Assembly (NCBI GenBank): GCA_008632985.1
Contig: QPGO01000262.1
Coordinates: 1-64,000 of the forward strand
Direction: 5' to 3'
DNA length: 64,000 nt
Origin: Psammoneis japonica
Taxonomy: Eukaryota
Shown one piece after another: positions 30,317-56,000 of the stretch. Position numbers and translations under genes: made by a program. A model generated the notes under the pieces. That model searched no databases. It was not told the origin of the DNA and worked only from the letters and a program-made list of their open reading frames with translations. Within the stretch, counting starts at the first letter, position 1. Each line of letters begins with the position of its first letter.

Positions 30317-30511
30317 AGGCGATTTGGTCGACCTGGGCCATGACATGTTCCCTGCCATATGTCTATGTTTCTTACTTTCCTGGCAAGGAAGGTTGTAATA
30401 TCATTCGCCGAGTCTACAAGGCCAATTTCTTACAGCGAGACAAGAAGATAAACTACTATAGAGTCGGTACCGACCGTAGGGTAGAAAGTGGAAAGAGCAA
30501 GACTCTATCGT

Positions 30512-33500: not shown

Positions 33501-35149
33501 TGCTCGTCGTCATTTGGCTGCGACGGTTCTAAAGTAGAAGTTTCGTTTGTCTCTTGCTGTCCATACAGTAATTTCTGTTCCAACGCCACGCGACGCTCCT
33601 TGAGTTTGGATTCCAAATGACGTCGTCGTTGTCGCAGCTTGACCAAATCCCGTCCCGTCCCCATTTTCCCCAGCAAAGCCGACAGCAGTGCCAAAATCTG
33701 AATCGTTTTGCCCAAGCCCATGTCGTCTCCCAAAATACAACCCTGTCGTCTAGCAAAGGCTTGATACATGAATTGGACTCCCTCGCGTTGATAGGCTTTG
33801 ATGCAACTATTCACGGCCGGTGGTACTTGATGCTGAGTTGTCATGGCTGCATTGGCATTGGTGGACTCGGTTGGTTGATTCTCGTTATCCACATCCTCTT
33901 CATCGTCACTACGTTCATCTTTCGTCAAAATCAGAGGACAAAAATGCTCTTGAGACGGCTGAAACTTTGGATTCTCCAAGTCGGGAATGAGTGCTTCGAG
34001 TTCGACGGATTCTTCTTCTTCTTCTGGTTGTGCCCTGTACAAATCTTGTTGTCGTGGTTCGTTGTTGGACGACGACTTGCGCTTTTTGCGCTTGCGACGT
34101 TGCTCCATGTAATCCTCCACCGCATCGTGAGAGGGGTGTCGCTTCTTTTCCGCAGTACCACTACATCGTTGGATTCCTTTTTCGATTTCCTTTTGGCCCT
34201 TGGTTTCTTATCACTCTCTTCTTCTTGATCTTCCTCTGAATCGCTCCACAAGTTTCTGCTGCCATGGAGGAGGATCGTGTGGATGCAAGTGGTTGTTGAG
34301 CCGCAGCAGCAGCCGTTTGTTCCATGAGTTCCCGTTCGAGTATGATTGGATTCTTTATACTGCGTCTTTGTCTTGAATTCTTCCGCTGTGGAGACGAAGC
34401 ATCACTCATACCACCATTGCCACTACGATTGTCGTCATTGTCACTGTCGTATCGATGAGTAGCTGATTTGTTCTTTTTGTTTCTGGATGCAGGAGCCACC
34501 ATACCAAAATCAATCTCGGCATCCGAATCATCATCCTGCAACGACGCAACCAATGGTTTCTTGATCACAATAAGAGGCGTTGGCTTGTCATTTTCTAGGT
34601 TACTTTCTTCTTCTTGACAATGACCGGAACCGTAGTAAAATCGGGTTCGGCATCGGAATCATCCTCTGTTTGCTCATTGAGCTTTTTCTTGATGATAATC
34701 TTGTTGTTGTTGTTATCATGGCTGTGCTTTTTCTTCGTTTCAGGAGACGGACGTTTCCACGAAGGAACGGGTGGTGATATTGTAGAGAGAGACGAGGCCT
34801 GAGAGGGCTCTTCTTCGTCACGTGCTGTTGGAATGTAAATTTGTTTGCCTGAATGGGGATTATTATTACCGAGAGGAGGCCACTGCTTTTTTCGGGGAGT
34901 CGTTGTTGTTGTTGTTGTATGTTGTCACTTTCAAGGAGAGGGTGGATTCGTTTTCAGCAATACAGGCGCTTGTTTTTTACTACTAGCCACGGGCGGATTC
35001 TTTTTGACCGGTGCTATGGTTGAAACACTCTCTTTCTTCTTCTCAGCTACCGGTACGAGCCGCAATTTCGCCTTTCGCTCTTCCTCTCGCTTGAGTTGTC
35101 GTTGTCGCTTTCGACGCCATTTTTCCAATGCAAGTCCTGAACTCATATT
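30512..35149 (-). CDS. SNF2-family helicase, ERCC6L2/Rad26-like (multi-exon, several apparent frameshifts)
   Basis: Motifs LGDDMGLGKTIQ, DEFH, LSGT, LLSTKACGLGLN, QAQDRAYRIGQ and GELFGIENLL. Introns at about 33139-33237 and about 32866-32941. Frame breaks occur, e.g. at the C6 run 33421-33426. Confidence 0.85.
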
Positions 35150-35597
35150 CAAGTAGTAAGTAGGTCAATCTCTATATTGTCATGTTGTACAATAAGGTAA
35201 GCAACGGCTGTTCAACACATCGAATTGCTCATGGTTTGTTCGTTTTGATTGCGAGCTCTTTTCGAATTCCCGACTCAATCAACATGGGAATGAGGAATCT
35301 TGTCCGTAGCTTTTTTGTGAATGTCCGTAGCAAAACGGAATCTGTCCGTACCTAGCTTTTTTATTTTTTGTGTTACGGACAAGAAAAAATAGTCACGGAC
35401 AAAGTTCCTCATTCCAGATTCCTATTTTCAGACAAACGACATTATGACGCGCGGTCACGTCACAGACAGAAAAGTCTTATTATCAAGCGACGTCATGAGG
35501 ACGTCACACACAAAAGATACGCGGTGGTTGAAGTCGTTGTCCGATCACCGATCACACACAATCTCCACAATCAAACGCCATCAAACCGCATCACACC

Positions 35598-36669
35598 ATG
35601 AGCAGATTGAAAATAATGGCGTCGCTTTCCTTGAGTATTGTTACATCATGCATCGTCTTGTTGATATCACCCGTATCCGCATTTGTTATTCCCAATACTT
35701 CTCGTCGTTTGAATAATAATCGTCCATCCACAGTACAACTCTATTCGTCTGTTTCCGACACGGACGATTTATTAACGGATCAACGTGCCCACGCATGGGA
35801 AGTCTTTCAAAAGTACCACGCCGAAGGCAAAATTGCATCGCATTTGTTACTCGAAGTGTTGAGGGACTTGGATATCGAAGCCAATGAGGACGATGTAAAG
35901 GCTTTATTCAGGTACTTGGATCAAGACGACAATGGCGAAATTACCTTTGATGAGTTCCTTCCGTGGTATTCCGATGCCGTCGATGCCGCCAGTGAAGTGG
36001 CGGATAGTTTTCAATCTCTAATAATTGGTCGTCGGACTGTAGAACAATTCGATCAAACACCCGTCAGTAACGATATTTTGAAACGTGCCGTCCAGTGTGC
36101 CATTGCGGCACCGAATCGCAGCATGAGTGAACCGTGGCGTTTCATTACGGTCGGACCACAAACGATTGCACAATTTGCCAAACTCAATGCCAAGGTACGT
36201 CAAAATATGGAAACCGATACAGGAACGAGTAGTGTTTACGATTGGACGACGATACCGGGATGGTGTGTCGTTACCAACAAGATTACACCCAACGATGAGG
36301 ATGCCGAATTGGATGATTACAAGTCCACGTGTTGTGCCATTCAAAATTTTATGCTCAGCATGTGGAGTGAAGGCGTCGGAACCAAATGGACGAGTGGACC
36401 GGTTCAAAAGACACAGGAATTCGCCGACTTGTGTGGTGTCGACACGACCAAGGAAAAAGTGATTGGTAAGTGGGGAATACGATTGATAAGAATATTTATT
36501 GATACGATTGCATTGCATGGCTGATCAATCCGACGTTTGTTCCCATACGACCCACCACATGTCACGCCCAGGTTGTATTTGGTATGGATTCGCCACTGGG
36601 GGTAGTCAATACGCCGACCCGAGGCGTCGAAAAAAGACAGTCGATGATGTCTTGACGTTTTTGCCGTGA
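35598..36669 (+). CDS. Plastid-targeted EF-hand plus nitroreductase-family protein
   Basis: Signal peptide ending VSA-FVIP, EF-hand DQDDNGEITFDEF, and nitroreductase motifs RRTV..F, APN...EPWRF and QNFML..W.EG.GTKW. Intron 36466-36571; stop at 36667-36669. Confidence 0.88.
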
Positions 36670-36774
36670 ATAAGAATAATCTCAAAATAATAATAGGATG
36701 GGTTTGTTTTGCTACTGTTTTGTACTGTAGTTGTGAAAATAATAGTAGTGATAGTAATTGTTTTGTTGTGGTGG

Positions 36775-37864
36775 TTATACACGCTGCTTCTTTGCTACTG
36801 GAGATCCGTCGGCAATGTCGTTGTTGTCTTGCTCGTTATCACTCCAATCATCCTTCTCATTGTTCGATCCACCCTGTTCGTCTTCGGATTCCGACGACGA
36901 TTCCTTGTCCCAGTCCTGGTAAATGATGAGAGAGCAATAGGCGCATAATATAAGAATACTATTCAAGAACTACAAAACACTACTGCATACAGAAAGACCA
37001 CGACCAACAATCACCATATATTACCTTGAGTTTGGAATTCATCATGTAATCATCCGAAAAGGCATTCCACTTTTTCGTCTTGGTGGTGTCAGATGCGTTG
37101 GCTATCGTTGTTTCGTTTGTAGTAGCCTTGTTTTCAACTTGAGGTTGCTGTTGATTGGCTGCTTTGGTTTTGATCATGTCGAGAAAGCCGTGCTTGGTCA
37201 GTTTGGGTGTTGTTGCTGACGACTTTGTAGCAGTACTAGTACTAGCACTAGCAGTTTCACTCTTTTGTTGTTGTTGTTGCTGCTGTTGATGTTGTGCAAT
37301 GGCGTTGAACAGTGCCACAACACCCCGCGTTGCGACACGACGATAAAGCCGTTCCTCTTGCAACTCTTGGACCAAATTGCTGCTTTTGCTTTCGACATTC
37401 ATAGTGGTGGCTACCGATAGCGGTACATGTAGAGCTTGCAAATTGCGTTGACGATTCAATTTACGTTTTTGATCTTGTTCTCGTTTCAATTCTTTTTCCT
37501 TTTTCAATTGGCGTTGCAGAGGAGTGGTTGTTTTGGATAAAACGACAGTGCTCATGCTGTTTGATTTATTCGATGAATGCACAGGAGCACCCAAGATTCG
37601 AGCCATGGCACCCGCCATTCCCAACGACTGTTTCTTACTTGTCATTGTGTCGTCGAATTCATCCTCTTCATCGATTGATTCGTCGTCACTTTCGTTGTTG
37701 CTATCTGATTTATCTTGTTGTTTTTGTTCCGACTCGCTCTCTTCTTGATCTTCTTTCTCACTTTCGCTTTCTTCTTCACTGGAACCCGCAAATCGATCCA
37801 GATCCTCTGGTTCAACCGCTTGAGGCTTTTGCTTTTTATTCTTCTTCTTGTGAGAAAGCGCCAT
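36775..37864 (-). CDS. RRP15: Ribosome biogenesis protein RRP15
   Basis: RRVATRGVVALFNAI motif, acidic N-terminus and FLDMIK. Intron 36916-37024, then DWDKE... Confidence 0.88.
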
Positions 37865-39379
37865 GGTGGAAAGGTATCTTCCTCTTACTGTCTCTCGTTT
37901 CTTGGTTTTTGTTGCACAAAAAACAGAAAAAATGAGTGGCGGACGTGCAGATCGGTGTCACTTTGTCTGTTCACATCGGTTTCCCGCCAATTTCACTTTC
38001 CTCCTCAATGTTCATTTCAGAATGAAGTGTCTGTGCACGGACACTCAAACGCATCGAAAACAAGCCCTTCGGGGGGCACTGACCACGGCAAGTGTGCTGC
38101 CAAAGTTGCTGCTTTTGCACCGTCAATGCCCTTCACTGTGACAACGAGTCCTGCACAATGCAGCAGACAGTTTTTGTCCAAAATGTTGAAGGTTCTCGCA
38201 CATCTGGCGCTTGCCTCGTCAGAGCAAAACACTTGCTTGCAGTGTTGAAGTGCTCCAGCCCCAGGTGGGGGCTTGCAGTGCTGGCATGCAACACAGCTGT
38301 TCTTTGACATCCACTGTGTGTTTTGCACGCACATTTCTGCACGCGATGCAGCACCCCAGATGCTGGCGGAGAAATCAGCGCAACTTTGGGCCCACACAGA
38401 TTCTGTGTGTGAGCTCTGCAGCAAAATTGCCAGGTGATGAACGCGCCAATGATTGCCAACAGAAAAGGCGCAACTTTGCAAATGCACAAACTCATCCATG
38501 ATTGGAGTGCTCAATCTGCAACACAAATGACCTGCATGAGCTGTGCCGCAAAGGAGGTTGGCAGCTGTTCGCAGAAAAACAAAAGACCTCGCAGTGCCTC
38601 GCACCATGAAAATCTGGCTCAAAAAAGTTCCTGAGCACTGTGGTTTTTGCAACACAACATCAACAAGTGCTTTTGCATGTGTGGTGCAGAAGAGAGAGAG
38701 CATGTTGCAGACACAACTTTGTCACCTTTGCCAATTTTGCGCAAGCTTTGGCAACTTTGGCACCTTTGCTGACTTTGTGCAAACTTTGACAACTTTGTCA
38801 ATTTTTCTGACTTTGTCAAATCTTGTCAAGTTCAGCAACTTGGGTCTGCGGGAAATTGCCATTTTTGCCACCTGCGTGTCAAAATTGATGAGAGTCGCAC
38901 CTGCCAGCACAAAATCTGTCAGACAAGACAAATTTGTTGCCGACACCACCTCGCAGAAAAGACATTTTTAGACACAACTTTTGATGCAAAAAACTGTGTG
39001 AGACAAAAAAACTGTGCAAAGACTCAGATGTGTGCTGGCAAAAATGTCCCAATTTTTGCATTGTGCGGGAATCTGCCAGGCCTTTGCATGCAAAAGAACC
39101 CGCGCGCACATCTCACAAATGTGTGACACAACTTTCAAAATGCACATCCGGGCAACATTTTTTTGGAAGTCTTGCAGAAATTCTAAAAATGCCCGGATGT
39201 GCACTTTCGAAACTGTGGCACAACTTTGATTTGTGTGAAAAGTTGTGTCAAAGTTGTGTCAAAAATGTGCAAGCTCATCATGCAGAAAAAGTGTGCATGC
39301 CGCTGGCATTGCAAACGGTCAAAACCCACAGAGATTCTCTGTTTTTTGCTCAAAAACATGATTTCCTGCAGACCCTTTG

Positions 39380-39820
39380 TCAAGTTTTGCACCCAAAGTT
39401 GGTGTGCCAAGTTTTGCTCCAACGTTGGCATGCTGAGTTTTGCCCCAAAGTTGGCATGCCGAGTTTCACCCCAAAGTTGGCGTGCCAAGTTTGCCAAAAG
39501 GTTGTGGTCTGAGTTTGGCTCCAAAGTTGGTGCAACAAGTTTTGCAGCAAAGTTGGCATGCCAAGTTGGCATGCCAAGTTTGGCTTCAAAGTTGGGCATG
39601 CCAAGTTTCGTGTTGTGCACCAAAGCTGTTGTGCCGAGCTTTGCTCCAAAGTTGACATGCCGAGTTTTGCTTCAAAGCTGGCATTTGTCAAGTTTGGCAG
39701 CTTTGTCAACTCTTCTGACTGTGGCAACTTTGTTGGCTGTGGTGACTTTGTTGACTTTCTTGACTTTGTTGACTCTGGCAAACTTGGCAAGTTTGGTGAC
39801 TTCCTCAACTTTGCTGACTT
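39380..39820. repeat. Degenerate ~28-bp (ccaaagttggcatgccaagttttg) and 9-bp tandem arrays
   Basis: Repeated ccaaagttggcatgcc blocks at 39392-39680, followed by degenerate tttggcaac/tttgttgac units. Similar degenerate units occur at 38745-38830. Confidence 0.7.
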
Positions 39821-41633
39821 GGGGCCTCAGCACACGCAGGAGTCCTTGTGAGGAGTGCAGCAGGGGACACATCAAAAAGGAGACAATTGCGCAAATGCAC
39901 AGACTCGCCCATGGTTGAAGCACGTCATTTTTTGCTGAGCCTGCGGTGCTTTTCAAACATTGAGGAATGCACCCAGAACACAGTTGTCAACATTTCTGCA
40001 CGAATTTTCCAACCATCAACTTTTTCTGGTTTTGGCAAAGTCCAATGTCAACAGAAGGTGAGTTCCCACAAATCCACTTGGTCCCAGCCCATTGCATGAA
40101 GCGACCTCTGTTGCAATTTTTTTGTCCTTTTCAAGAGACTTCTGTGCAAATTTCACCCTTTCAATTTTTGCTTTCTTCATTTTGATGGGATGTTGATGGG
40201 GCAAGATTTGTGTGCCCCACTTGTGGAGAAATCTCCTGAGCACCATGTGACAGCTCCCTTTTGGCTCAGTTCAAGAATGACTGCACAGAGGAGCAAGCAT
40301 CAGCCCCCCTCTTCCAGCGACTCTGAAGACTGTGATGGTGATGAAGAAGAGGCCACTTCTTCTGATCAATCACAGCGCAGCACAGGGAAAACATGGTTGC
40401 CTCTGGCAGCGACTCTCTCTCTTTGTGGATGATGCGCAGAATGTTCAAAGCCACCAGACAGCTGCGCTTGTGTCAGCGCTTGCACATGCAGCCACAAACA
40501 ATCAAAACATTTGAGCTCAGGGGCACAATTTTGAATCCATGACACTTTTTTCAAGTCAAGAGAAAATGCAAAAAACAACAAGCAAGTGTCGCCATGATGG
40601 CTCAGAGACAGACCAATCTGAGTGAGCAGATGGCCGGCAATCAAAAGGCTGGCAGAGACATCATCAAGGTGAGAGATCACATCAAAGAAGATGTTTTTCT
40701 GAGGCTCGGTCTACAGGTGAACCGCGCCGGATCGGATCGACGGATCGGATCGCGTCAGAATTCCGTCAGTCGACAGGTGGAACCGGATCGGATCGCGGAT
40801 CGGATTCGACATTTTGATGAGTCGCAAAACGACATAAGTTTCAAGATTCCAAACTCCCAAGAACAACAAAAAAGCGCTGACAACAGCGAACAGCAAGAAG
40901 TGTGGCCATGATGCTTCACATCTTGTCATAACGTGACGATATGACGACAGAACCATACTGTTATTACTGCTATACATACATATGAGACCGCATCATTGAG
41001 AATCGTTGTCACTCAGTGTTCGCAGCAACGCTAAGGAAGAAAAAGCTATCACTTTTGTAATTAGGAAACTAATGCAAATGTTTTCGTATTGAAATTTCGA
41101 ATTAAATAATAAATACTTGTTATTTTGCTTATTCAATGTTTCTCCAACAAATCTATACGGCATTATCGGTTTGACAAGCTATTCTATTGCCATGCGACCT
41201 TTCTCATCGTCATTTCGAGCATGGGAAGACTTTGACTATAATGCTCAGAATGTTCCTTGCCCTTATGGCTGAATCTTATGCCGTTCTGTGTCATAATCGT
41301 GTGATGTTGTGCCATTGTCGTGATGACGGCACGGAATCTTCAAAAATTGGATCCGACATCCGATCCGGATTTTCGGATCGGACCACCCCTGTGGTAGGGG
41401 AGAATATGGTGATGTCATGGTTACGTGGCAGTTTATATCTCATTCATTATATTTTTGTATAAATGTCCTCACATTTATTTGTGCATTTGCACACAAATGC
41501 CAACAGTGACAGGAAAAAATCCTGAACCACATTCTCCCCTAAAACTCCAACCACCAAAAACCGAGGGGTCGGAAGCGCACTTTTGGGAGCTCTTTTTCTC
41601 CGCACAAAAAACACGCGTTTTGACAACTCGACC

Positions 41634-43612
41634 ATGACGACCTCCCGTTCTTCGTCCCCTGCACCTGACCACTCCTCCGTCCACACATGTGCCGAACCGC
41701 CTTCTTCTCCCGTTTCTGCTGACATGCATGGCATGTTTCCTTCTAGCGGGATGCATCAAATTTTGGGTGACCAACATGCTGCTGCTGCACATGATGTTCA
41801 CACGGATGCTGCCGCTTCTGGCCAAATTGACGGCACCTTTTCCGACGACGCTGCCTCCGTGTCCATCTTGCGGGTCTCTCTTGATGTCTTCCAAAAGGCT
41901 CCGCATGCTTGGCAGAGCGACACATCACGCCGTGCACTTCAAACAGGTCCCACTCGTCCCGCGCAACCTTTGTTGCTTGTCCGCCCCACTGGTGGTGGAA
42001 AGTCCCTTGTGCGAGACATTGTTGGTGTTTGCCTCAAGGGTGTCATCCTTACGATCATTCCCTTGTTGTCCTTGGGCTCGGATCAATGCCGTAAAATCAT
42101 GAACCGTGCCATGCAACATCCATCACACGGTCCTGTTGCTTCCTTCCATTTGGGTGAAGCACTCCAAAATCCATTGTGCATGCAGGCGTTTTGTTCTTTG
42201 ATGCAACGTTTGCCAGTGGCGGTTCGTGGGACGATGTTCCTTTTTTGTTCGCCTCAGTTGCTTGTGTCTGATGAGCGGCTTGTGAATCTCATTCTGAGAT
42301 TTGCATCCAACGGATTGCTGCGGCTCCTGGCCTTGGATGAAATTCATCTGTTTGTGAGTTTCGGGCTTTCTTGTCGGGTGGAGTTTCAACAACTTCGCAA
42401 CATCTTTTTCCGTCACATTCAGCGGTGTCCCATTCCATTCCTCCTGATGACGGCGACCTGCACTGTGCGTGCCGTCTCGTCCATGGAGGGTTTGATTGGA
42501 TTCAAAATTCAAGACTGCTGTTGGCCACCTCCCTGGCACATGATGCACAGGAATGTTTCGTTCCTTGTTTCTTGCAGTGACCGCCCATTCACGGTGACAT
42601 CCAATGTGCTGGCTCCGTTGCTGGGTGCTGCAACTGACGCGACCAAATGTGTTGTGTGCTCCAACCGCCACACAAAAATTGAATCCTTCCAAACAAATCT
42701 TGAGATGTGGCTGGATCGCAGCGATGCATGCCATTTGTTGGACGTCATTTCGCTGGTTGGTGCGCTCACCAAGGAACAAAAGGCTCACCACATTTCAACA
42801 TTCATTGAAACAGATACATCCGCACCGGACGCTCCCTGTCGACCTCGGTTTCTTTGTGCTGCAAGTGGTGCTTCCAATGCCGGCATCGATTCTCAACACA
42901 TTGCCGGTGTTTTCCGAATCGATTTCCCTCCGTCCATCATTGACATGAATCAAGAGAAAGGCCGAGCTGGACGCAGTGCGGCTTTGTCTGGTTGCTTCTA
43001 CCAAGCTTTCATTTCTCTTGAAACTTTTCTTCATTTGTTCCTTCGCATCACAGACCCGGCAGAAAAAAGGTCTCGCGCGAAGCACGGCAAAACGAGCTTC
43101 ATGACTTGATGCAGGTTCTCCGTCTGCTTGTTTTGCCCGTTTGTTGCCATCAAGCGTCCTGGGAGGTGCTGCATTCTCATCCGACGTGTGCAAGGATGGT
43201 CGACCCCCGTTTTTTGAATCCGTGTGGAGCCTGCACCTGTTGTCACGGAAAACACTTGGATCTCTGTCCCGCTTTGAATCGTCCGGGCGTTGTGTCCATG
43301 CCATTTAATGTGTTCGTGCATGGCGAACATGCAACCCGGAACCTGCGCCTTGTGGATGCGGTTGTCGATGCTGTTTGCCGGTTCCCCGGCGCACCAGCTT
43401 TGTTGTTCCGAAGCTCTGTGGCAAAGGTGGAGCCCAAGGTGGTCAAGCAAACCATCTTGGTTCTCATTGCGGCTGGCGTGCTTGTTTGCGAGCCCGCTGA
43501 GGACGAATCCGACAAGCATTGCATGACGTTAGCCCTTGCATTGGTTGCACCCGGCGCTGCAGAATTTGCAATGCATCACGATTCGTTTTGGGATTACATC
43601 CGCACCAAATAA
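41634..43612 (+). pseudogene. RecQ-like SF2 helicase of the AcademH element (one frameshift near 43065)
   Basis: Motifs PHAWQ, VRPTGGGKSL, IIPLLSLGSDQ, DEIH, MTAT, GIDS and QEKGRAGR. A Cys-rich Zn region follows the frameshift (PVCCH..PCGACTCC). Confidence 0.85.
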
Positions 43613-43659
43613 GAACAGTGGCAGTGTCACCTGCAACAGTTGTGAGTGATTGACAAACA

Positions 43660-46600
43660 TTGTCACACAAGCGATCGCAGACGATCAAATGCTTCTTGTG
43701 GCATTGCATCAACTTCTTCACCGGTGTTTTCACGAAACAAGGGATCCTTCAATGATTCCCAAAGTCTTTCCTCACGTGCTTTTGCCCGATGTCATGTCTG
43801 TTGTAAATTTTTCTTTTCCATTTTTTCTTTGCCTGCTTCGAAGACGTTCTTGAATCCAAGGACGTTCACCGCGGCCTGTGTCATTTTGCCTGTGTTGCGA
43901 TTGCCCACTTTTACATCAACCGTCTCCGACACAAACACAGACGCACCTTGTTCCACTTCATCTTCCGTCTCCTCCTCCGTTTCCTCCGCCTCATCATCAT
44001 GAAGCGCGCCAATCATCATGGGATCCATTGTCACCAATGCACCAGGCTCATTGACATCATCATCCGATGTGTGGCTTGCTTGTGCCAGCCCCTCGAGCTC
44101 TTCCGCCATTGAAGCCGCAGCTCCTTCCACACGTGTCTCGTCCTCGTTCCCGTCATTGTCGTGTGTCGCATCCGCCACCGACGACAGCAGCATCTCTTCC
44201 TCCGTCCGACAGTCTTCTAGCCAACGTTCCATCCTTTCGTCTTCTGTCTCCGCGTTCAATTCGGTCGTGAGGTTGGGCAATTCCTTCCAAAACAAATCCC
44301 GGCTGTATCTGCGTCCAGGGATTTCTGCTGTGGCTTGTGTCAAATGAAGCAACTCGGCCACCAACTGCTTCTCAAGCACTCGGCTTGGCACTGACGTGGC
44401 CTTCTTTCGGTTGTCGCTGTCACGCTTGGGGTCGTTGTCCTGCAGGTCCACGCATTTGCGCTCAAACGTCTCGCTGTCTGCCAGCCCAGCGTGTTCATTG
44501 GACGAGAACTGGATGCACTTGGCAATCATCGCTACATTGCCAGAGTGCGTCTTCCAACCTTCGATTGTGTTCTGGAAATTCATCTTGTGGCAATGCCGTT
44601 GCATCAACTCCATCAATCCATCCAGGGCCCAGCATGCCATGGGGTTGCCGGACCGGTCTGTGCCCTCGTAAAGAGGGTGGGCGCGGTTTGCTCGCATCAT
44701 TTGCAACACTTCAAAAGGTGGCTTGCCACACAACTGTTCAATGGTTTCGACGCCAATGTCAAAATAGTGCGTCTTGCCTGCTGCCAAGAAGACAGGATTG
44801 AACGAGTTGTGCAGCCACTCGATCATGACGGCATCGCCACACCTCACCGACGCCTGGAACAAACGACAACAGTGAATCAGTTTTGCATGTTGCAGCACCA
44901 TGCAAAACACTTCATCGGCAGTCGTCGATGTGGCTCTGTCCACCCACGCCATGTGTCGCTCGGATGCAAACAAAGCACATTCGCTGGGTCCTTGTAATGC
45001 GATCCACTGATTGCACAATTCGTTGTCATTCAACAGCACAGTGCAAAAGGTGTTTGTGAGTTGACGTTCTGCTTCGGCGCCCAACATCATGGCCATTGCA
45101 GCGGCTTGTTGGTGGCACTTTGTCACGTCTGTTCCACGGATCCGCTTCCACCCCAGTGCAGCTTGGAACGGCTGCAGCAATGACCCGCAGCACAGAGCAC
45201 AAATGGCACCCAAAAAATGGAAGCCGCCTCCATGCAGATCACCTGCAGAGTTGATGACCTGCCCCATCGCCTTTTCCAACACGCCAGCGGCAACATGCCG
45301 GTCCACGCAGCTGTGCGCCGAGGCCTGCATCAATTCCCGGAAGGACTTGACTCGCATCTGAGACAGTCCATCACCCACCACCATCAACCAACGTGTCCGG
45401 CAGTCGTCAGCAAGGGCCAGGTCTTGCACAGCCTCGCCCGAAACACCACGGGAAGACGTCGCCTCAATGATGTTGAACAGTTGCAAAAGGCCCAATGCCA
45501 CCTTACCCGTGCCCTTGTCAGTGGTTTCGTCCTCACAAGAGACAGCAGGAATCATGACGGAAACCCGTTTTGGCATGCCCCGCCAAATCTGCGCAGCACG
45601 ACGTTGGAAATTTCGACAAGACTGGCAGAACCCCCGAGGCACGCGATTCGGAGACAGCCTGATTGTGACGTTCAGGGATTTCATGGCGTCTACACCAGTC
45701 GCATTCTGAAAGGCAAAGACGGTGTCTCGGTCACGAGGAATGTAGTGGCACTGTGTGTGAGCCATGGACGCCAAGCGAACAACACTCGAGCACCGAGAGA
45801 CACGAGTGCCTGTGGAATCCACACTGTCAAAGAATGCGTCAAAGCACTGGACGTCGATGATGCGGGCATTGTTGGCCAGCGTTGGTTCAACAGTGTCATG
45901 GGCCGGCATCCCGAATGGCAATGGTGTCGATTGATCGATGCAGGTGACAACAGTCGGAGGCGACAGGGCCGTGGGGCAAGCGTCAAATCGAGGTGGCACG
46001 CGCGGCTTTACAAACATGCGAGACGTAGTTTTGGTCACCGCGGCGGATTTACCCTGGCGTTGACATTCAAGGCTACCAACGATCTGAAACCAAAGAGTCG
46101 CCAAGGCAAAGTGCGTAAAGCAAGTGCTCAAAGGGCAATGGTCACTGCCACACAGTGTGTCACTTGCCTGAGAATTGTCAAAAATGGCAATTCCAAAGTT
46201 GCCGGAATCCTTCAGGGTCTCATTGGTTTCCAAAAGGACCGTGGCGCAGTTGGCAAAGGGACGCATCTTGCGCAAAAGAGTGCTCTGATGTGCCAACTGG
46301 CCAAAGCAAACAGACATCTTGGAACGAGACGCAGAATCAAAAGAGCCACAGGAAGCAGCAGCGTTGCAGCATGCCCACCATGTAAATGCTTTGGGGTTCC
46401 GGATGCACATGATCGACATGAAGACGCAAAAAACAAATTGATCCCAGACAGGAAGCAAGTGTTGCACGTGAGAGTGTTCTTTGCGAGCCTTGCAGCTCAA
46501 CAATGAGCTGAGAACAATGTGATGCCGCGGCATCATTTCACGAAACCGCTTTGCCATGTCGGTCAGGGCAACTTGAGACAGAATGGGAGAAGTTGATTTG

Positions 46601-47964
46601 ATGAATCGACTGGAACAGGAATGCATGGCATCCTCACACTCCGTCTCTACAAAATCACAAAAGGACTTCAATGCTTGGTCATCTGAATCAATGGTGAAGA
46701 GTCGCCCAATCCAGTCAGTCGAAATTTTGCCAGACTTGCAGTGCACCAGTTGAGCGTCCTTTTCGTTTTTAAGCAAAACCATGTCATGCTCACAACAAAG
46801 AACATGAACCACGTGGCCATCCCCGCACAGCTCCTGCAGATGTCGGTTCATCATGGCGGCGCGACGCTTTGTGTCCTTCATTTTCTTCAATTGCGTTGCA
46901 ACGTTGCCCGTGCGAGGGGATGCCGCCCACAACTGGAATGTGGTTACATTGTGGAACACATCCGAATGCTTTAACTCACATGAAGGAGCATCAGGGAGAG
47001 CGGCAGGCACAGCACCAATGCCGCCACCGCCGGCGGAAGTGCACAGATGGGAAACTTCGGATGGCGTCAAATCAGGTTTGATGAGTTTCTCCCGTGATGG
47101 ATTGGAACACACCGTCATTTCAACACTGCAGAAAAAGCTGTTGTACATCCGAACCGCCGAAGAATGGCACTTTGCATGGACGGACCGGAGGAGTGGTTGC
47201 CACGTTAAATGGAAGGTGGGATGCGATGGCGATGCAAGCACAACGAATTTGGTTCCAACTTGTAGCCTGATGACATCTTCCAGCATTGAACGCCGATGGC
47301 CGGAAGAAAGAACAGATGGCACAGTGTCCCACGGTGTGCCCGGGAAGTGGCGGCGGCGCTTGTCATTGCGAAGACGTCTTGGTTTCTGCAATTCCGATTC
47401 CGTGTTGCAGGAACGAGCAGGAAGCTTCCTGTCACCAGCAGAGGAGCTTGACGGTCGCCGCTTTTCATCAGATGGGTCAAGCTGAATGTCAAAGTTGTGC
47501 ATGGCCTCCTTGACAGCATGCAAGGCATTGGGCGGAGAGAAGGAAGTGGCCGAGCAATCTGCATCAATGACAGGATCACGGAGAAAAGCAAGCATCGTAT
47601 CTTTGAACAACTGAACCTTGACGTCGGTTTGTTGCTTTTGTTTTTTGACCTGTTTTCGGAGCTGCACCCCAGACCGTTTGAGAGAAGGCTCATCTGCACC
47701 TTCCACAACACGACGATGCGAACGAGAATCCAGTTTCTCCAGGGACGCAATGACAGGAGTAGACCAATCACGGTGCTGTGTTTGTGTTTCAGGCACAGGA
47801 TCCGGCGAACAGAAGCCCAAATCCTCCGGATGGCAAATCGGCTGTGTTTGGGTAACGACAGCGGGTGCAACGGTGCCGGCCAATGCAGGAGGGACTGCCG
47901 CATCAGATGTGGCAGGCGGGGATGCGTCAGGTGGTGTGGGGGACAAAGAACGGGAGGTCGTCAT
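43660..47964 (-). pseudogene. Academ-type (DUF6589-like) DDE transposase
   Basis: Motifs IAIFDNSQ, VVGDGLSQMR, GDLHGGGFH, FLAAGKTHY and ALDGLMELMQ. There is an in-frame 84-bp relic intron at 46084-46167 and a premature TGA at 43792. Confidence 0.78.
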
Positions 47965-48195
47965 GGTCGAGTTGTCAAAACGCGTGTTTTTTGTGCGAAG
48001 AAAAAGAGCTGCCAAAAGTGCGCTTCCGACCCCTCGGTTTTTGGTGGTTGGAGTTTTGGGGGAGCTGTGGAACAGGAATTTTTACTTGTGGAACACACAC
48101 ATTCGTGTGGATGTTAAGATTGAAACTCAACGCACGGCGAAGCCGTGCGCGCACAACCACGCACACACACACACAGCTCCCCCACCACAGGGGTG

Positions 48196-48247
48196 GGATC
48201 GGACGGTCTTCGGAGCAAAGTGTTTTGCTCCGAAGACCGTCCGATCC
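48196..48247. repeat. Perfect 24-bp hairpin in the Harbinger-type element at the AcademH insertion site
   Basis: ggatcggacggtcttcggagcaaa-gtgt-tttgctccgaagaccgtccgatcc. Confidence 0.92.
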
Positions 48248-48976
48248 GAGATGGCGGATCAGTCCCACGAAGGCCACGGATCGACTTTTTGACTCGATGG
48301 ACTGACATTTTAATGGGTCATGAAGGAGTCGATCCGGCGATCCAATCTGGCTCGGTTCACCTGTAGATCGAGCCTGAGCACTGCACTCATGCTTGGTGCA
48401 AAACATCTGGGCAAAGAAGCAGGCACACTGCACAAAGACAAGTTTTGCTGCAAGCTTCGCTGGGAAATTGATGCTGAGCAAGATGCCAAGCCAACACCAG
48501 CAGCAGCCATTTCTGATGACACAGGGGCATGACAAGATGAAAGAGCAACTCTCAGCCCTGACAGATGTTCAAACATGCTGAGAGCATTGCTCCAACAAGG
48601 GGCTCATCAAAAAGGGGGCCATCACAAAGAAGAGAAAGTTTGCAAAATGACTCAAGCACTTTGTGCCAATTGACTCAAGCCCAGCAAAAGAAGGCACAGA
48701 AGATGATGCAGGATGCCAAAGAAAAGCAGGGGAATGAGTTGCCAAGATCCAACAAGTTCTTTGAGGAGCCAGCCATGGAAAATCACATGACACATCACAA
48801 CCAAGTCCCACGGAGAACAAGCTGGGGAAGGACTTGCTGATTTGGGTGACAAGCGAGACAACATGGTGAGCTGCCCCAAAGACAAAAACCCATGAGTGGA
48901 ATTTTTTTTTGTTCAATGCAAGGATTCTTCCATTGCAGAAGCTGTGCTTTAGAAGGCCACTGTCAAATTGAGCATT

Positions 48977-49236
48977 GGCCTGTTCCAGCTCCAGGTGCTC
49001 CGCGCGGGTTCGATTCCCATCATTTGGAAATTTGTGCACCCAGCGCAATTGACTTTTTCCAAATCCAATTTTTGCCAAATCGAAGGGTGGGTGTGCACTT
49101 TACATGCATTTTCGGGTGTGCACTCACCTTTCGATTTTCGAAATGATCAAAATTGAAGGAGTCAATTGCGCTAAACTGCGCAGAAAATCGGCCTCTCGCG
49201 TGATGAAAAGCAGAGCACCTGGAGCTGGAACAGGCC
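48977..49236. mobile_element. 260-bp MITE, family 1, copy 2 (TSD CATT)
   Basis: catt|ggcctgttccagctccaggtgctc ... gagcacctggagctggaacaggcc|catt; inverted homolog of 16689-16948. Confidence 0.9.
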
Positions 49237-51280
49237 CATTTTGTGTGTGCACAAACTTCTTAAATTTTGCCATGCTGGCTGGGTTGGCAAGATCTTGATT
49301 TGCAAATTTGGGCATTTGTTTGCAAACTCGGGCATTTGTTGGTTGGCAAATCACACCCATTTGTGCCAAACAGAGGTGACTTGTGCCAAACAGAACTGCG
49401 ATTGCATCACAAACAAATTGCCTGTTTGTGCTCACACACATTGGGGTAGACTGGGGTCTGGTTGTCTGTGGGTTGCAGGGCTCAGCACAGATTGGGAGAC
49501 CCTGATGTGCAAGATCCCACCCAGAGCTTGAGCACATCTGAGGATTGCCAAATTCATTGCAGCCAATTGCCAAATTGCACTGCGAGATGAGAGATCATTT
49601 TTCTGATGAGTGATTTGTGGTCACACTCACACGCAACAATTTTCTTGCAAGTGAGCTGGCTTGTTGGCAACACACAAACAGCGTTTTGTGTTGAAATGCG
49701 TGCATGGGCACAAGTTCTTGCTCTGAATGGAACAAACAAAACATTCATCGACAAAGAAGTTTCAGAAGATGTGGGAAGAAATTAAACTCAGCCCGCACAG
49801 CAGCAGCAACTTTGAAAACCCTTTTTGCCGTTTTTTTTTACAAAAACAGCTGAAGCACTTGCACCAGTCGATGACCGTCGATGACCACATGGAGGAAACA
49901 CACACTTCAGTGAAAAAAACTTGCTCCAAGAGGCCAGTTGCAAGCAAGGTGAAGCCCAGCCAATGTTCATTGACAGGTTTGTCTTCTTGTGCTGTTGATG
50001 ACACAGACTGCACAAAACACTGCTTTGTCTCATGTGTGCTCCATGCGCGCACAAAAAATTTTTGCACTGGCAGCTCCCCATGCTTCCTCTCTCACACACT
50101 TCTGCACCTTCCATGTGCTGGGGCATTAAGAAATTTGCCACAAGTGGCAAGTCAGCAAGCGCAACCGTCTTTTTCTGCCTCTTCCTTTTTTGCCACCTTT
50201 TTTTGAGGAACTTCTGCCACCCTGCTTTTGCCCCAGCATCTCCTTGGCACTTTTTGCTGCTGGCACAACTTGTGAAATTAATGGCAGCATCACAAGAAAT
50301 TTCTTCTGATGGTTGCGGATGGCATTGTTGGGTTTGCCACTCAGCGCACTCTTCCTCGTGATTGACTGTGCATGGCAGTGTTTCTTTTTGCACGCTGTCA
50401 GCCATGACACCTTTGCGTGCCACTTGACATGTTGACCTTTGTGCCAGGAATTTGATCTTTGAAAAAGCTCTTTGCCAGCTGCCCCTTCAACTTTTCTTCA
50501 GCAAGACTGGCACCTTGCACTTGCTCCCCTCTGTTTCAACACTGGGCCGGAACTCTGGGGCTGAGTGGCTGGCTCTGTGGGCTGTCAGATGTCGCACTCT
50601 TCTTTTTCTTTGCTGCTTCTTCAGCCGTGGGCTTCAGAGCCACAGCGAGGCAATGATTTGTGTTGTGGTGGTGGCTCTTTTCTGAAAATGAATGAGATGA
50701 AGAAGATCGTTTTTGCAACAAGTTGCAATTGATTCACTTTGATCCGAAGCGATTCTTTCTGACCATTGGTTGCTGAAATGTGTTGTGAATGGACGATCCC
50801 AAAAGCTGGGTGGGTTTTATGGAGAGGCTCGCGGTTCCATTGCTGCATTTCCACTCGCATTCAAATGCCAGCAAGTTGAGAAAGATCGGCGGCCCATCAC
50901 TGGCACAGCACGATTTGCCAGAGATTGGACCATTCTTTGGAACTGATTCCTTGGCCATTCCCTTTCGATACGAGCAATCTGAAACTCACTCTAAGCAAGC
51001 TCGGTAGTTACTATGTGAGATCCCCTGATGGAATCAATACATTGTTCGGAAAGAGAGGAGGCAGTGTCCAACTCAAGGACCTGAAAGTCTATCATGGAGT
51101 CTATGAGGAAGGAGAGTTCATCCCATTCACGGATACCGAGCCCTTTACTTTGTGTACTATAAGTTAGTGTTGTCGTACTAATGAGTTAAGCAAGCTTTTT
51201 CTTCACTGCCTGCGTCCGAAGGCAGTCCCTTATTGGCTGTTGCAAAAGTATTTTAACATACCGGTGCGAAGGCGACCCTC

Positions 51281-51781
51281 TCATAATTCAATGGTTTCGT
51301 CCAAAATTTCTTCTCCTGGTTTCCCGTTTGCCGCACCTAAATCTGCCTCGGGTTTCAAGGCATCCTCGCCTCCATTGAGGCCCTCCTTCACCTTTGGCCG
51401 TGTGTCGATGTTCATAAAATCTGGAGTTCCACCTTGATTCACGTTATTCGAATCAGCTGGATTCACGACAGGTTTCGGCGGAATAGTTCGAACCCACTGC
51501 ACGAAGAAAATGAAAAACAGAAGAACCGCGCCTCCTACATACGGAAGGAGTTTGAGACATTGCTGAAAATAAAAGGGAAATAAACATGAGAGATTCACAT
51601 ATAGGCACAATCTCAAGGCGTTTCAATTTCGATTCTGATCCGTATTGATAATTGATACACACACCTCTCTTGCTTCTTCTTGCTCCCGAAGTCGGGCGCG
51701 CCTTTCTTCCTTAGTTTCGTTTCGGTGCCATCCGTGCACCTTCTTTGCGTCTCTGCTCTTGTATTGCTTTGACTTCGGCAT
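51281..51781 (-). CDS. SMCO4/DUF4519-like small single-pass membrane coiled-coil protein (2 exons, 132 aa)
   Basis: Exon 1 (51781-51665) reads MPKSKQYK...ETKEERRARLREQEEARE. A GT..AG intron spans 51664-51563. Exon 2 reads QCLKLLPYVGGAVLLFFIFFVQWVRT. Confidence 0.7.
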
Positions 51782-52026
51782 TGTATCTAGAGTAGAGATA
51801 AGATTCAGATTGACAGAGTGACTTTAAGCGATCCAAAGATGATGTCCATTGCGCCGAGGACATTGCGGTCTTTTTTATGCTTCTTCTCATCAACTTCTCA
51901 ACAACTCTTCTGCGAGGTCTGTCAGGTGTACGGAAAGGAGGCATACGCCATGATACCTTACATAACACCTGCCGTAATCATTTTGACACCTCATTTGCAA
52001 TCAATCCCCATCAACCGAAAACGGCA

Positions 52027-52560
52027 ATGACAAGCTTTACCTTTATTTCAATCGTCATGATGGTGATGAGATCCGTCTTGCAAGTTGACAGTTGGACTCC
52101 ACCAAAAACACGCCGCGAGGCCTTGCAATCGTCCGCTTATTTGTTGTGGCTGTCGTCACCACTTGTTGTGAAACCCACTCGAGCGACGGCTGAAAACGAC
52201 GAGACGATTCCACCACAACAACAAAAGGAGGACGCGTCTGTCTTTTTAGGAAGCTACTCAGATCCCAACCATCCAGAGGGTTATCGTATCGTTGAAATGA
52301 CAGGCACAGGCTTTGGTGGCTTTCAGCTTGCCAAGGTTCGTGGCAAAGATACCGTTTCCCAAGAAGCAGAGTATGAATTACCCGCCATGATTTTTGATTG
52401 TCCCGGAAATCGTGCTGGACTTGCTCGTGCGTCGTCTGGAAGAATGTGTATTACCATTGACTTTACACCAAAGGGTGGTCCGAAGGACTTTACGGGGTAT
52501 TGGGATTCCAGTGGAATACGATTCATACTCGATGACAACTTTTGGCCCAAGCAAAACTAA
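52027..52560 (+). CDS. Conserved algal hypothetical protein, probably plastid/thylakoid-lumen targeted
   Basis: Signal peptide, twin-Arg-like TRREAL segment, YSDPNHP and IDFTPKGGP motifs, and normal codon composition. Confidence 0.75.
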   Translation: MTSFTFISIVMMVMRSVLQVDSWTPPKTRREALQSSAYLLWLSSPLVVKPTRATAENDETIPPQQQKEDASVFLGSYSDPNHPEGYRIVEMTGTGFGGFQLAKVRGKDTVSQEAEYELPAMIFDCPGNRAGLARASSGRMCITIDFTPKGGPKDFTGYWDSSGIRFILDDNFWPKQN

Positions 52561-53047
52561 GTTATAGCGAGCGTGTAAACTGGCGTTTGTTGTGTCCTTG
52601 ACAAGCAAGAGGTCGTTTTGATTGAAGACATGCGGGTATGATGATGGATAACTTTCTTATTTGTTAGGAAAAAGCCCTACCGGTATCCTCACATTTTACT
52701 TATTGGTCCTTTAGATTTGCACCGCGAAAAGTACTTATTAGGTCCCGTTTATACTGTACTCCAAAACGTTGTTACTTTGTTCACTATCACAAAGTCATAC
52801 CCAAGCACGGTGGTCGATTGCTCAATCAATACATGCTACTGTCAGAGCTTGTTCAACCGCGCGTTTACGACATTTTTTGAAGTGTGCGATCGAACAGCCG
52901 CTATAGTCTTGATGTACGATCAACCTTGTGTTGACTGTTCCGTCGGTCATCATCGATAGATCATCCAAGGAGCAAAGGATAGAAAAAGAGAGAGAAAAAG
53001 AAAGCAAACGTATCATTCCATGATTTACTTTAGTCATATACTGTCGT

Positions 53048-56000
53048 TCAAAGTGCCTTCACCCGAATCCTCTTTACAACCCGTCCTTTGGTGTCCAAGA
53101 CCAGCTTGAAAATATTGGGTTCATCTGAAACATCACTCAGAGGGACTACTTCTGACCTAGCGCTACTGGGTGGAGGCGGGGGTACTTCAATGGTTCCTTC
53201 TCTTGAAACAAAGAGCGTTTCTTTACCAGTCCGGTAAAACACCATTACCTTCAACAAGGAATGCACTCCTTGCTTTGCAGCTGCCTTTGGACTAGCAAAG
53301 TCCCCAACTACCTGCGAACGAAGAAACATTCCTGGCTGATTCAAGGGAGAGCGTTTCGATCGGAAAACTAGGGAACCAGATCGTTTCTTCTTGGAGACAA
53401 TTGTCACGAGCACCGGATCCTCAACGTGTACGAATTTTGCATTGGATTCGTCATTTCTTGCAAGACCCGAAATGGCAAGGATCTCTTCACGTTCGTAGCT
53501 TGCTTTTCCATAATTCTGGTAGTCGTGGTTCTTGCAATAGTTGAGCAGATAATCCGGGGAAGGATCAAAAATCTTGCAGTAGCTCGGAAGAGTTTTCGTC
53601 AACGCCAAATACGTGCAGCAACTGAACCTTTCGTTTACCGCTCCAACTGGAAAGCTAAGATCATACATGAAGGACTTACCCGCGACAAAGTAGCCCATGT
53701 TTCCGCAACCCGGGAAGCATTTGACTCTATCGTATCCTTCGGGCTGGTTCTCTCTTCCCATAAGGTCGGACCATTTGTCGCACGATTTGCTAGCACAATT
53801 TGCAGCCGAGTCGTGACCACGTCCATAAGGGTACTCATCCGCCAATTCAAATAGCGAGTGACCAAGCTCATGCACCGCAATTAAAGGGGCTTCAGGATTT
53901 GTAGTCACAGCAGCAATGTTGGCATTGGTGTAGCCAGCACCCGCATACTGTTCCGAGTGATGAATCACAATCGTTTGAAGATTGGGACCAATTGGGAAGC
54001 ATTTGCTAGCCAATGTGTGGGTACGATGGTTGTCGCAGCTACAGATTGAATTGGAAAAAGTAAGGTGAGACCGAAGTAAAGGTCACGGTTGTCGTGGAGA
54101 TTTGGCGGGCTCAAAAAAAAATATAGTCTTACCATAACAATCGATCAATTCCTTGACAATTTGAATCACAAAACGATGAGCCTAACTCAAACGGATCAAC
54201 CATGAATACATTGAGCACATCAATGTCGTCTGCAAACATGCTGTAGTTTTGCATAACCTTATACGTCTTGTTGACCTGTTCTTGCCAAGCTTTGTGACCG
54301 ATGGAGTCGAAAGCCGAGGGAACAAACACAATGTTGATTCTGTCTTTGTGAAAGGGAGTACCAAACTTGTGCTTGATTGGAAAGCACGCAGATGATGCCA
54401 TACACACGCCGCTCCTGCATGTTGATGACTTGCACTCGGAATTGCTCGAGCAAGGTTTACCATTATCAATTGATGTGACATTTGCTACTACCGTGCTCTC
54501 CAACCCCCCTCCACCACCGCGCTGTCGATCGGGTTTGGTTTCCAGCTTTGCGGAAAAATCAGTTGGTAGCTTTGATGGGGGCGTTGTTGGGTTTTGTGTT
54601 GGAGAAGATGTAGGTGGTGAAGTTACGGGATGGGCTGTCGGACCTAGAGTTTGAGCAGTAGGTCGAGAAGTTGGACGACTCGTCGGTGACATTGTCGGGC
54701 TCGTTGTAGGTGGTGAAGTTGGTTTCATAGTAGGCTGCATGCTAGGTTTCATTGTAGGCTCAGCCGTAGGAACTAGCGTTGGATACAACGTCGGGGTACG
54801 AGTAGGCCCCATTGTAGGCCCCGCCGTTGGATACTTTGTAACACGTCTCTCTTTCGACAAGAACAAATGATTGAGCGCCCTACCAGAACCATCCCCTGTG
54901 TTGCTTGTCATTCGGTAAGCCTTGTCCCAAGAAAGAGTATCCCCATCCCAACGACAAAAGTTGGCGTTCTTCTTCATGTCTTGAAGGGATAACATGATGT
55001 CATTCCCATTCCTAAAAGAAGCCAATCGTATTGTTTTTGGATGGCCTTCAAGTGTTGGGCCGTCGTTCTCGCTTGACCACCCGTTGAACTTAGACCAAGT
55101 TCTATATTTCAAATCCTTCACGCTTGCTGTTACCTTCAGGGACAACCATGGGGTTTTCAACTGCGCGCCCGCGGACTTTTTCTTCGTATACGCTGCAATA
55201 GCCTGCCCTGATGTACCTTCAAATTGGACGGCAAGCTCGTCGAGAGGTTGTTCATCTACATCTGTGCTCGCAATTTGGACCGAATCCCATATATCAATGT
55301 CTCCATCCCAGACAGCCAACCAAAAGGCATTTGGACTCTTTGATGTGACTCCTAACGCGATGAGGTTGCTCGTACGATCGGAGCTCAAGCTGATTTGCAT
55401 CACGTTGCCTGTGATGTCTTTGGGATGTACAAGAGATTGATCATATACATCACTCCAGTCAGTTCCGTCCCAAATGCAAAATGCTGGTGACAATGAATCC
55501 TTTTGCCGAAGACAACTATCGCTCTTCCACTGTGCTGCTCGTAAGCAATGTCGATCGCGTTTTCATCCCCATCTTTGTCATTGTTCAATTTGAATTCCGT
55601 TTGCCAATCGTCCCCATCCCACACCATACAGTAGGTGGAAGACCCCTTTGCAGAAATAACGAGGATCATTTCATTTGACCTGGGATTAGAAGCCAGGAGT
55701 AGTCGAGTGTTCGTGCCGCTGGTCACAGGAGAATCAAAGCTTGACTGAGGGCCCCATGAAGTGCCGCTCCACTTTCGATAGTAAATAGTGTCTTCCCAGC
55801 CGACACTCCATATCAACATTGCGTTTCCACTTTGAGACTCGTATGCAACATCGAATCCATCGAGAAAGCTATCATCTACATAAATGTCGAGGGGTGAGAA
55901 AGGGACATTGCTCCAAACACCTCCCGAGTACATTTGAGCGATGACTTGGTTTTCTTCGGATGATCCAACGACAAGTGCTTCTTCACGAGTTGGTGAATAT

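Follow-up and report, generated by a model that had tools for sequence, protein, structure and literature searches.

Evidence for a probable region-directed hypermutation of TpA to TpG and CpA in repeat-rich DNA of a 64-kb window from Psammoneis japonica

The stretch of DNA analysed here, positions 1 to 64,000 of the forward strand of contig QPGO01000262.1 of Psammoneis japonica (assembly GCA_008632985.1; hereafter the window, 64 kb), carries host genes, a variety of repeats and two DNA transposons, an AcademH-type element at 41384..48195 and a hAT-like element at 56803..59832, and the subject of this paper is the loss of the dinucleotide TA from most of it. All composition results come from this one window, which was followed in 1-kb steps as the ratio of observed to expected dinucleotides (obs/exp). 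Two compositional states were found. In the gene blocks and one small island the per-kb values were 0.4-0.7 for TA, ~1 for CG and ~1.0-1.3 for CA/TG, whereas in the rest of the window, ~46 kb, they were 0.00-0.16, 0.1-0.97 and 1.4-2.2 respectively, some 1-kb windows containing no TA at all. When pooled, TA obs/exp was 0.06 in ~46.4 kb of depleted DNA (184 TAs) vs 0.55 in ~17.6 kb of gene blocks (682 TAs), and CG 0.53 vs 0.98, whilst CA rose from 1.19 in the gene blocks to 1.72 in the depleted DNA and TG from 1.13 to 1.60. Depletion of TA and of CG was correlated across the 46 TA-poor 1-kb windows (r=0.62). Inside the gene blocks TA obs/exp was 0.75 in spacers and non-coding DNA and 0.49 in coding open reading frames (ORFs), and the depletion elsewhere is thus not a coding effect; it spans unrelated repeats, satellite arrays and spacers alike.

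The TA-normal DNA comprises a block at 27404..37886 with two FCP/LHC genes and genes for a CXXC zinc-binding protein, an SNF2 ATPase, a nitroreductase/EF-hand protein and Rrp15p, a second block at 50969..57128 with M64 peptidase-like and PT-repeat ORFs, which overlaps the first ~330 bp of the hAT element, and the island at 40929..41540, which lies across the left end of the AcademH element (TA obs/exp 0.82 in 40929-41294 and 0.50 in 41295-41540). Around these lie four depleted domains: 1..27203, poor in CpG, rich in CA/TG and in repeats, with a remnant of an RT_RNaseH domain at 19180-19728 as its single Pfam match; 37887..40928, between the first gene block and the island, in which positions 40000-40698 have a TA obs/exp of 0.00 and a CG obs/exp of 0.27; 41541..50968, with the remainder of the AcademH element and older repeats to its right; and 57424..64000, with most of the hAT element and the repeats on its right. 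Sharp borders lie at 27204/27404, 37886 and 50969; the one at 56803-57423 is a gradient of ~600 bp.

The AcademH element is a single insertion whose limits are confirmed by a 9-bp direct repeat, GGATCGGAC, immediately outside each end (left copy 41375..41383, right copy 48196-48204), and this agrees with the target site duplication (TSD) of 9 or 10 bp given for AcademH in a published description (PMC10045372). It is bounded by terminal inverted repeats (TIRs; left copy 41384..41402 on the + strand, partner 48177-48195), inside which lies a second, inner pair (left copy 41511..41665 on the + strand, partner 47933-48086) with the promoter/5' leader and a start codon; between the outer and inner repeats (41403-41510 vs 48087-48176) a transition-tolerant alignment gave z=2.4 vs shuffles, from which no claim is drawn. 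A RecQ-like SF2 helicase ORF of 491 aa with 1 Tyr occupies 41634..43109 (+) and a putative transposase ORF of 1390 aa with 5 Tyr occupies 43792..47964 (-), both of which terminate in TGA. The former has 93 homologues, many of them named RecQ-type SF2 helicase, as fits an AcademH element, and a weak Pfam Helicase_C match (E=2e-4) under the curated cut-off; the latter has 600 homologues at E<=1e-3 and no Pfam family, and is only putatively a DDE transposase of the Academ type. The two ORFs face inward and begin inside the inner repeats with nearly the same peptide, MTTSRSSSP (ATG 41634) and MTTSRSLSP (ATG 47964), and each end of the element thus has its own copy of one promoter and start. TA obs/exp in the interior is 0.11 and CG obs/exp is 0.88.

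The AcademH element is itself nested in the central hairpin (24-bp stem, 48196-48247) of an outer foldback or MITE-like element (miniature inverted-repeat transposable element) of ~870 bp with GATCGG-type subterminal repeats, the left part of which lies at 40699..41383 and the right part at 48196-48378, with arms (40699-40747 / 48378-48330) that are 88% alike. In one contig of a public sequencing run, X1, position 40698 is followed immediately by 48374 (depth 62.5; the 5 letters CTGAG are shared), so that a form without AcademH and the outer element occurs in the sample, either allelic or paralogous. In the same run the summed contig depth over the AcademH ends (41322-41869 and 47624-48171) was 2260-4510 vs 40-260 over the interior, and there were joints at which the interior is bypassed or turned round (41378>48242; 41383/48238 on opposite strands; 46459>46784); this suggests many short non-autonomous derivatives of the AcademH family in the sample. 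The TA-normal core of the outer element, 40929-41294, is also repeated, with a summed depth of 1200-1580 in run X1, and 40904-41340 is the sole part of the 8.2-kb stretch covered by run X2 (depth 44-150), run X3 covering none of it; no tRNA, Rfam or Pfam match was found in 40904-41340.

The hAT-like element is flanked by a perfect 8-bp TSD, GTTGTGAC (56795-56802 and 59833-59840), and has 29-nt termini with 1 mismatch, an 8-bp TSD and short TIRs being the marks of a hAT element. None of the ORFs of at least 135 aa scanned in 57334-59841 has a Pfam match, to the hAT transposase (dimerisation domain) or any other family, and the element is probably either non-autonomous or too decayed.

The starting observation was made in a first-pass annotation of the window, which quoted five motif pairs, from the TIRs of these two elements and from two copies of a MITE (MITE2), as differing by a TA on one side and a TG or CA on the other. 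All five pairs exist, at or within a few bases of the positions given. In the AcademH element, ggTAgggg on the left (TA at 41395, in the terminal repeat) faces ggTGgggg on the right, and cccCTAaaac (TA at 41540, in the inner repeat) faces cccCCAaaac; over the gap-free blocks of the arms (152 nt, 7 mismatches) both of the left-hand TAs face TG or CA, the right arm being free of TA (Fisher p=0.010). The hAT element has gcaTAaatc (TA at 56813) against gcaCAaatc (reverse complement of 59817-59825) and ctgTAcct (TA at 56913) against ctgTGcct (reverse complement of 59708-59715); here too both TAs in the gap-free blocks (105 nt, 5 mismatches) are converted and the right arm is without TA (p=0.011), a third site, gTAg vs gTGc, being left uncounted as it lies in a badly aligned stretch. 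For MITE2 the pair gacaTAcgac (TA at 17627) and gacaCAcgac (~61136) is present, but between the copy end at 17607..17700 (+) and its copy at 61116-61209 (94 nt, 10 mismatches) only one of three TA sites differs (p=0.50), and the TA common to both copies sits in CTAG. The pooled Fisher test gave p=0.0008, the reverse never occurring in the AcademH or hAT arms, and the asymmetry of the pairs is therefore more than chance, though it rests on five sites. It is also correct that the copy which retains TA is the one next to unmutated DNA, as the left end of AcademH lies in the TA-normal island and that of the hAT element abuts a gene block.

As a repeat pair alone cannot polarise a difference, outgroups were used for its direction. 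The two AcademH proteins were compared with their homologues at columns where tyrosine is conserved: five columns of the helicase with at least 60% Tyr among 50 homologues, and 16 columns of the putative transposase with at least 50% Tyr among 37 homologues, so that the test covers the AcademH proteins only, a single family. The helicase has H, C, C, H and Y at these columns (codons CAT, TGC, TGC, CAC and TAC), and the putative transposase has C at eight, H at six, W at one and Y at one. Thus 18 of the 21 conserved Tyr (TAY) columns are Cys or His (TGY or CAY), the exact products of TA to TG or TA to CA. The Tyr content of the helicase is 0.19% and that of the transposase 0.42%, vs 2.46% and 3.75% in their homologues, the lowest of the 233 proteins compared, and all of the related metagenomic loci (72/72) have normal TA, with obs/exp of 0.47-0.99 vs the 0.11 of the AcademH interior. 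It follows from these relatives and from the Tyr columns that the AcademH family is not intrinsically TA-poor and that the change ran from TA to TG or CA. Three metagenomic homologues of the AcademH proteins, P0010, P0231 and P0113, are themselves poor in Tyr (0.8-1.1%) and rich in Cys+His (4.9-7.0%), and the same process may have acted on them, in part, in other organisms.

The loss of TA depends strongly on the flanking bases. When survival is expressed as the frequency of each TA-centred tetranucleotide in depleted vs normal DNA, scaled for length, TTAA is fully retained (1.1), followed by CTAA/TTAG (0.27-0.29), CTAG (0.22), GTAA/TTAC (0.14-0.20), GTAG/CTAC (0.11-0.12), ATAA/TTAT (0.05-0.06), GTAC (0.035), ATAG/CTAT and ATAC/GTAT (~0.02) and finally ATAT (0). 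These survivals are approximately the products of per-strand values set by the base 3' of the A, namely ~0.06 for T, ~0.2 for C, ~0.45 for G and 1 for A, and the rule which fits best is a change of A to G at 5'-TAY-3' on either strand or, equivalently, of T to C at 5'-RTA-3'. The trinucleotides concur, with ATA/TAT at x0.03, GTA/TAC at x0.08, CTA/TAG at x0.13 and TAA/TTA at x0.22 and a gain in GCA/TGC (x1.95); 31 of the 40 TAs left in the AcademH interior lie in GTAA/TTAC, CTAC/GTAG or TTAA. In the Tyr columns, a purine precedes the site in 6/8 of the Tyr to His changes and in 3/10 of the Tyr to Cys changes.

Several observations support a change at the present location. The TSDs of both elements, 9 bp in AcademH and 8 bp in hAT, are intact, and the border of a depleted domain falls inside each element. 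Over its first 157 bp the AcademH element keeps 11 TAs, and beyond that ~1 per 170 bp, whilst in the hAT element TA density drops inward from the left end, with obs/exp of 0.94 in the flank (56360-56802), 0.26 in the first 458 bp (56803-57260) and 0.08 in the remainder (57261-59832). Counted as left kept to right kept, AcademH and hAT each give 2:0 for the TA differences between their arms, and the CpG differences run the same way, 1:0 in AcademH (CG at 41653-41654 on the left, TG in the partner) and 2:0 in the outer element, all retained on the left.

Separate copies of a repeat have also changed independently. Two MITE copies, 48977-49236 and 16689-16948 (91.5% identical), each retain TAs that are lost in the other. 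Adjacent double transitions were counted in 32 non-tandem repeat pairs (5977 columns), and CA<>TG doubles numbered 134 vs 23 for AC<>GT, 17 for AT<>GC and 13 for CC<>TT; the other classes were rarer still (AA<>GG 8, AG<>GA 8, CT<>TC 5, TA<>CG 0), so that CA<>TG stands ~6-fold above the next class. Such an excess in dispersed copies indicates that one ancestral pyrimidine-purine (Y-R) step was resolved to TG in one copy and to CA in the other. The share of mismatches at Y-R steps (432/1086 in 31 repeat pairs) was not clearly above the share of such positions, and this measure was not used. Other family copies seen in the contigs of run X1 were placed on the region as 743 pieces, and 383 of the 447 places where they differ are transitions; among the 40 of the 447 differing places that were listed there are 31 events, of which 15 are CG<>TG/CA, eight TG<>CA doubles, three TA<>TG/CA and five others.

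The change has been rapid. In the AcademH interior ~80% of TAs are lost by composition, or 18/21 by the Tyr test, whilst CG obs/exp there is still 0.88; AcademH and hAT have each lost ~80-90% of their TAs outside the left end, and the AcademH arms differ outside Y-R steps at only 2/152 positions. As TA is gone while CpG is nearly intact and the arms have barely diverged, the change at TA must be far faster than CpG decay or the background, and such speed argues for an active process over a slow bias.

The host genes are of ordinary nuclear kinds and mark the DNA as that of a fucoxanthin-containing, diatom-like alga. The tandem FCP genes match Pfam Chloroa_b-bind and have FCP chains as their best solved relatives (E=1.8e-87), and 11 of the 22 mismatches between them are CG<>CA or TA<>TG; the SNF2-family ATPase gene (30515-34207, -) consists of at least three ORFs, presumably with introns. 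Pfam scans outside AcademH covered 114 ORFs of at least 135 aa across the window and 71 ORFs (66 of them of 70-134 aa) from 17-27 kb, and in TA-poor DNA the RT_RNaseH remnant was their only match; neither a tRNA nor an Rfam family was found when the window and the island were scanned for them. Arrays of a 9-bp unit (CAAGTTTGG / CAACTTTGG, periods 18 and 27) occur at 3543-4402 and 13201-15019, and also at 2019-2139, 38714-38845 and 39679-39823; they are T/G-rich on the + strand and their consensus has no TA, hence they are uninformative on TA loss. The near-absence of TAA and TAG also leaves the depleted domains full of long stop-free ORFs in all six frames: they hold 144 of the 182 ORFs of at least 110 aa, and the Tyr content of almost all of these 144 is 0%. 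The long ORF at 8880-10343 (-) has no homologues and is probably spurious, since stops are rare in this DNA.

The results above establish the composition, the dependence on context, the direction of change, the independent mutation of copies and where the borders lie, and on these grounds we consider it probable that a real, region-directed hypermutation of TpA to TpG or CpA has acted in place, after insertion, in repeat-rich DNA. The first-pass annotation had likewise proposed post-insertion, position-dependent change rather than an intrinsically TA-poor element, and that proposal is upheld here, mainly by the evidence from outgroups, TSDs, borders and repeat copies rather than by the TIR pairs themselves. 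Under such a process, gene-free and repeat-rich stretches would undergo a fast, sequence-specific A:T to G:C transition, A to G at 5'-TAY-3' on each strand independently, which would strike DNA where it is located and would halt at sharp or short graded borders beside expressed host genes without respect for the ends of elements. AcademH and hAT would then be victims, single insertions whose left ends project into spared DNA and so keep their TAs, and the outcome would be permanent inactivation of the transposon. As TA to TG or CA never creates an in-frame stop and removes TAA and TAG, the ruined ORFs stay open, riddled with Tyr to Cys or His changes. The targeting may follow chromatin state, silent vs expressed, the 0.6-kb island may be protected from it, and the change may be performed by a dedicated enzyme. 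Candidate chemistries would be an adenine deaminase of the tRNA-deaminase type acting on DNA, or the oxidation of thymine at TpA followed by mispairing; in the natural substrate of the tRNA deaminases (TadA/ADAT) a U precedes the A. We put forward only tentatively the more specific proposal, which may well be wrong, that a dedicated defence mutator edits duplex DNA at TpA in silenced chromatin, either a TadA/ADAT-fold deaminase or a thymine oxidase whose product pairs with G, and that it turns TAY into TGY on either strand within a few generations of silencing.

A number of observations weigh against this interpretation. The repeat pairs offer few sites, and a matching orientation in two elements has a chance probability of ~0.25. 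The outcome favoured by context, TG or CA, was seen at only 18 of the 25 informative sites in repeat pairs, which is modest support for the rule. CpG<>TpG/CpA differences are frequent (139 singles in repeat pairs), and since an ancestral CpG also yields CA<>TG doubles the 134 cannot all be due to TA; a rough model estimate would attribute ~80 to TA and ~30 to CG. The tandem FCP duplicate (27735-28383 / 28876-29525, 650 bp, 96.5% identical) is TA-normal and untouched, and homology or duplication alone is thus not the trigger. The spared, repeated core at 40929-41294 has been resident for at least as long as AcademH, and the sparing of the island fits equally well with a young, unmutated host element which received an already mutated AcademH. 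No candidate enzyme gene was seen in the window, and any statement about repeat-rich domains genome-wide is an extrapolation from 64 kb.

An AcademH that arrived already mutated leads to a rival in which the TpA-erasing process is the same, but struck these copies at a previous locus, from which they were mobilised in trans; the left/right asymmetry of their repeats would have come with them, and its match to the flanks would be a coincidence. The long-resident, TA-normal core would suit it, as would the high copy number of the AcademH ends, which points to short derivatives mobilised in trans, and the orientation of only two elements has to be explained by chance. We nevertheless think it quite unlikely, as the TA content of the hAT element falls gradually inward from a TA-normal flank, the CpG differences between the arms of AcademH and the outer element (3:0) run the same way as those of TA, so that position-dependent change is needed here anyway, and independent mutation of copies after their separation is demonstrated by the reciprocal retention of TAs and the surplus of CA<>TG doubles. 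It could be argued instead that no dedicated mutator exists and that DNA which is methylated and not transcribed has passively and slowly built up a context bias with age, as in CpG decay, for instance through inefficient repair of a lesion or modified base at TpA, given that the TA-poor blocks are also the CpG-poor and gene-free ones and that the two depletions correlate. This too is unlikely, if a little less so to our minds, for in AcademH ~80-90% of TAs are gone with ~90% of CpG intact and arms that hardly differ outside Y-R steps, and the 1-kb windows without TA, the sharp borders and the strict context rule with TTAA spared look enzymatic.

Modified bases give systematic miscalls in some long-read base callers, and a modified base at TpA misread as C or G could in principle mimic the pattern; no run was found other than one which probably stems from the assembly's own sample and is then not independent, a point which also tells against our interpretation. 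An artefact of sequencing or assembly is nevertheless highly improbable. The k-mer contigs of run X1 reproduce the TA-poor letters (e.g., 315 nt with 0 differences) and show paralogous copies fixed for alternative states; from a miscall on one strand a mixture of TA, CA, TG and CG calls and new CG would be expected, whereas TA<>CG doubles are absent and CG is depleted; and the outcome follows codon-level logic at the 18 converted Tyr columns. Finally, a mismatch of TA with TG or CA is symmetrical, and repeat-induced point mutation (RIP) makes exactly such mismatches by CpA to TpA in what would then be the TA-rich parts. That the direction is the reverse of the one proposed, or that the elements are TA-poor intrinsically through selection or foreign origin, is scarcely credible when the invariant Tyr codons of the homologues are TGY or CAY here and the relatives are TA-normal without exception, when the TA-rich parts are ordinary host genes and spacers (0.49-0.75), and when the depletion covers such unrelated kinds of sequence.

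A literature search, mostly at abstract level, found no report of TpA to TpG or CpA hypermutation in diatoms or elsewhere, and a TpA-erasing, RIP-like hypermutation appears to be undescribed so far. Hypermutation of repeats within the chromosome is textbook knowledge only for fungi, and there as C to T. The hypermutation proposed here resembles RIP in Neurospora and other fungi, in that both show dense, dinucleotide-specific transitions within chromosomal repeats, which are post-insertion, copy-specific, confined to sharp domains and permanently lethal to the element. However, RIP is a C:G to T:A change at CpA, whereas here it is A:T to G:C at TpA, as the TGY and CAY codons of the Tyr columns show; RIP creates TpA, whereas here TpA is lost and CpA and TpG accumulate; RIP makes many stop codons and none are made here; and the organism here is a fucoxanthin-containing alga instead of a fungus. 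RIP is triggered by duplication, and although the depleted DNA here is repeat-rich, the FCP duplicate and parts of repeated elements are spared. RIP is premeiotic and depends on a DNA methyltransferase (DNMT) of the RID type. Genes for the RID-related DNMT4, described as of unknown function, are present in many diatoms (PMC9998398).

Decay of CpG by deamination of 5-methylcytosine likewise yields TpG and CpA in these silent domains and has left its mark on this DNA too (CG 0.53), but it cannot remove TpA, is much slower in this DNA and is uncoupled from the loss of TA in AcademH, where TA has gone and CpG has not; it was therefore rejected as the explanation. The strand-wise, deaminase-like signature with a rule for the neighbouring base recalls ADAR (A to G on RNA) and APOBEC3 (C to U on cDNA), and ADAR itself prefers an A with a 5' T or U. 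The 3' preference found here (T>C>G>>A) differs from that of ADAR, though, and both strands are struck. Editing of RNA or cDNA was likewise rejected, as cut-and-paste transposons with TSDs are among the victims, along with MITEs and spacers, and none of these passes through RNA or cDNA. Modification of thymine, to base J in kinetoplastids or to 5-hydroxymethyluracil in dinoflagellates, offers a possible chemical route to T to C, the enzymes concerned picking T before A in silent or repetitive DNA, whilst the accessible parts of the literature on such marks state no preference for TpA. These marks are epigenetic, unlike the change described here, and they are not known to erase the site.

If the interpretation is correct, this would be the first natural system of A:T to G:C hypermutation directed at repeats, and the first RIP-like defence outside the fungi; an A:T to G:C counterpart in a diatom-like alga would mean that defence of this sort arose on more than one occasion and by distinct chemical routes. 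It would also point to an enzyme that naturally changes A to G or T to C at TpA in DNA, an activity known so far only from engineered base editors. Such a process would remove TAA and TAG, TATA-like promoter elements and Tyr codons without ever making a stop codon, and would thereby explain the long stop-free ORFs in gene-free DNA, which are a trap for gene finders. It would provide a time-stamp for the silencing of transposons which runs much faster than CpG decay and, through TA obs/exp and the replacement of Tyr by Cys or His, a simple genome-wide read-out for silent domains and their borders.

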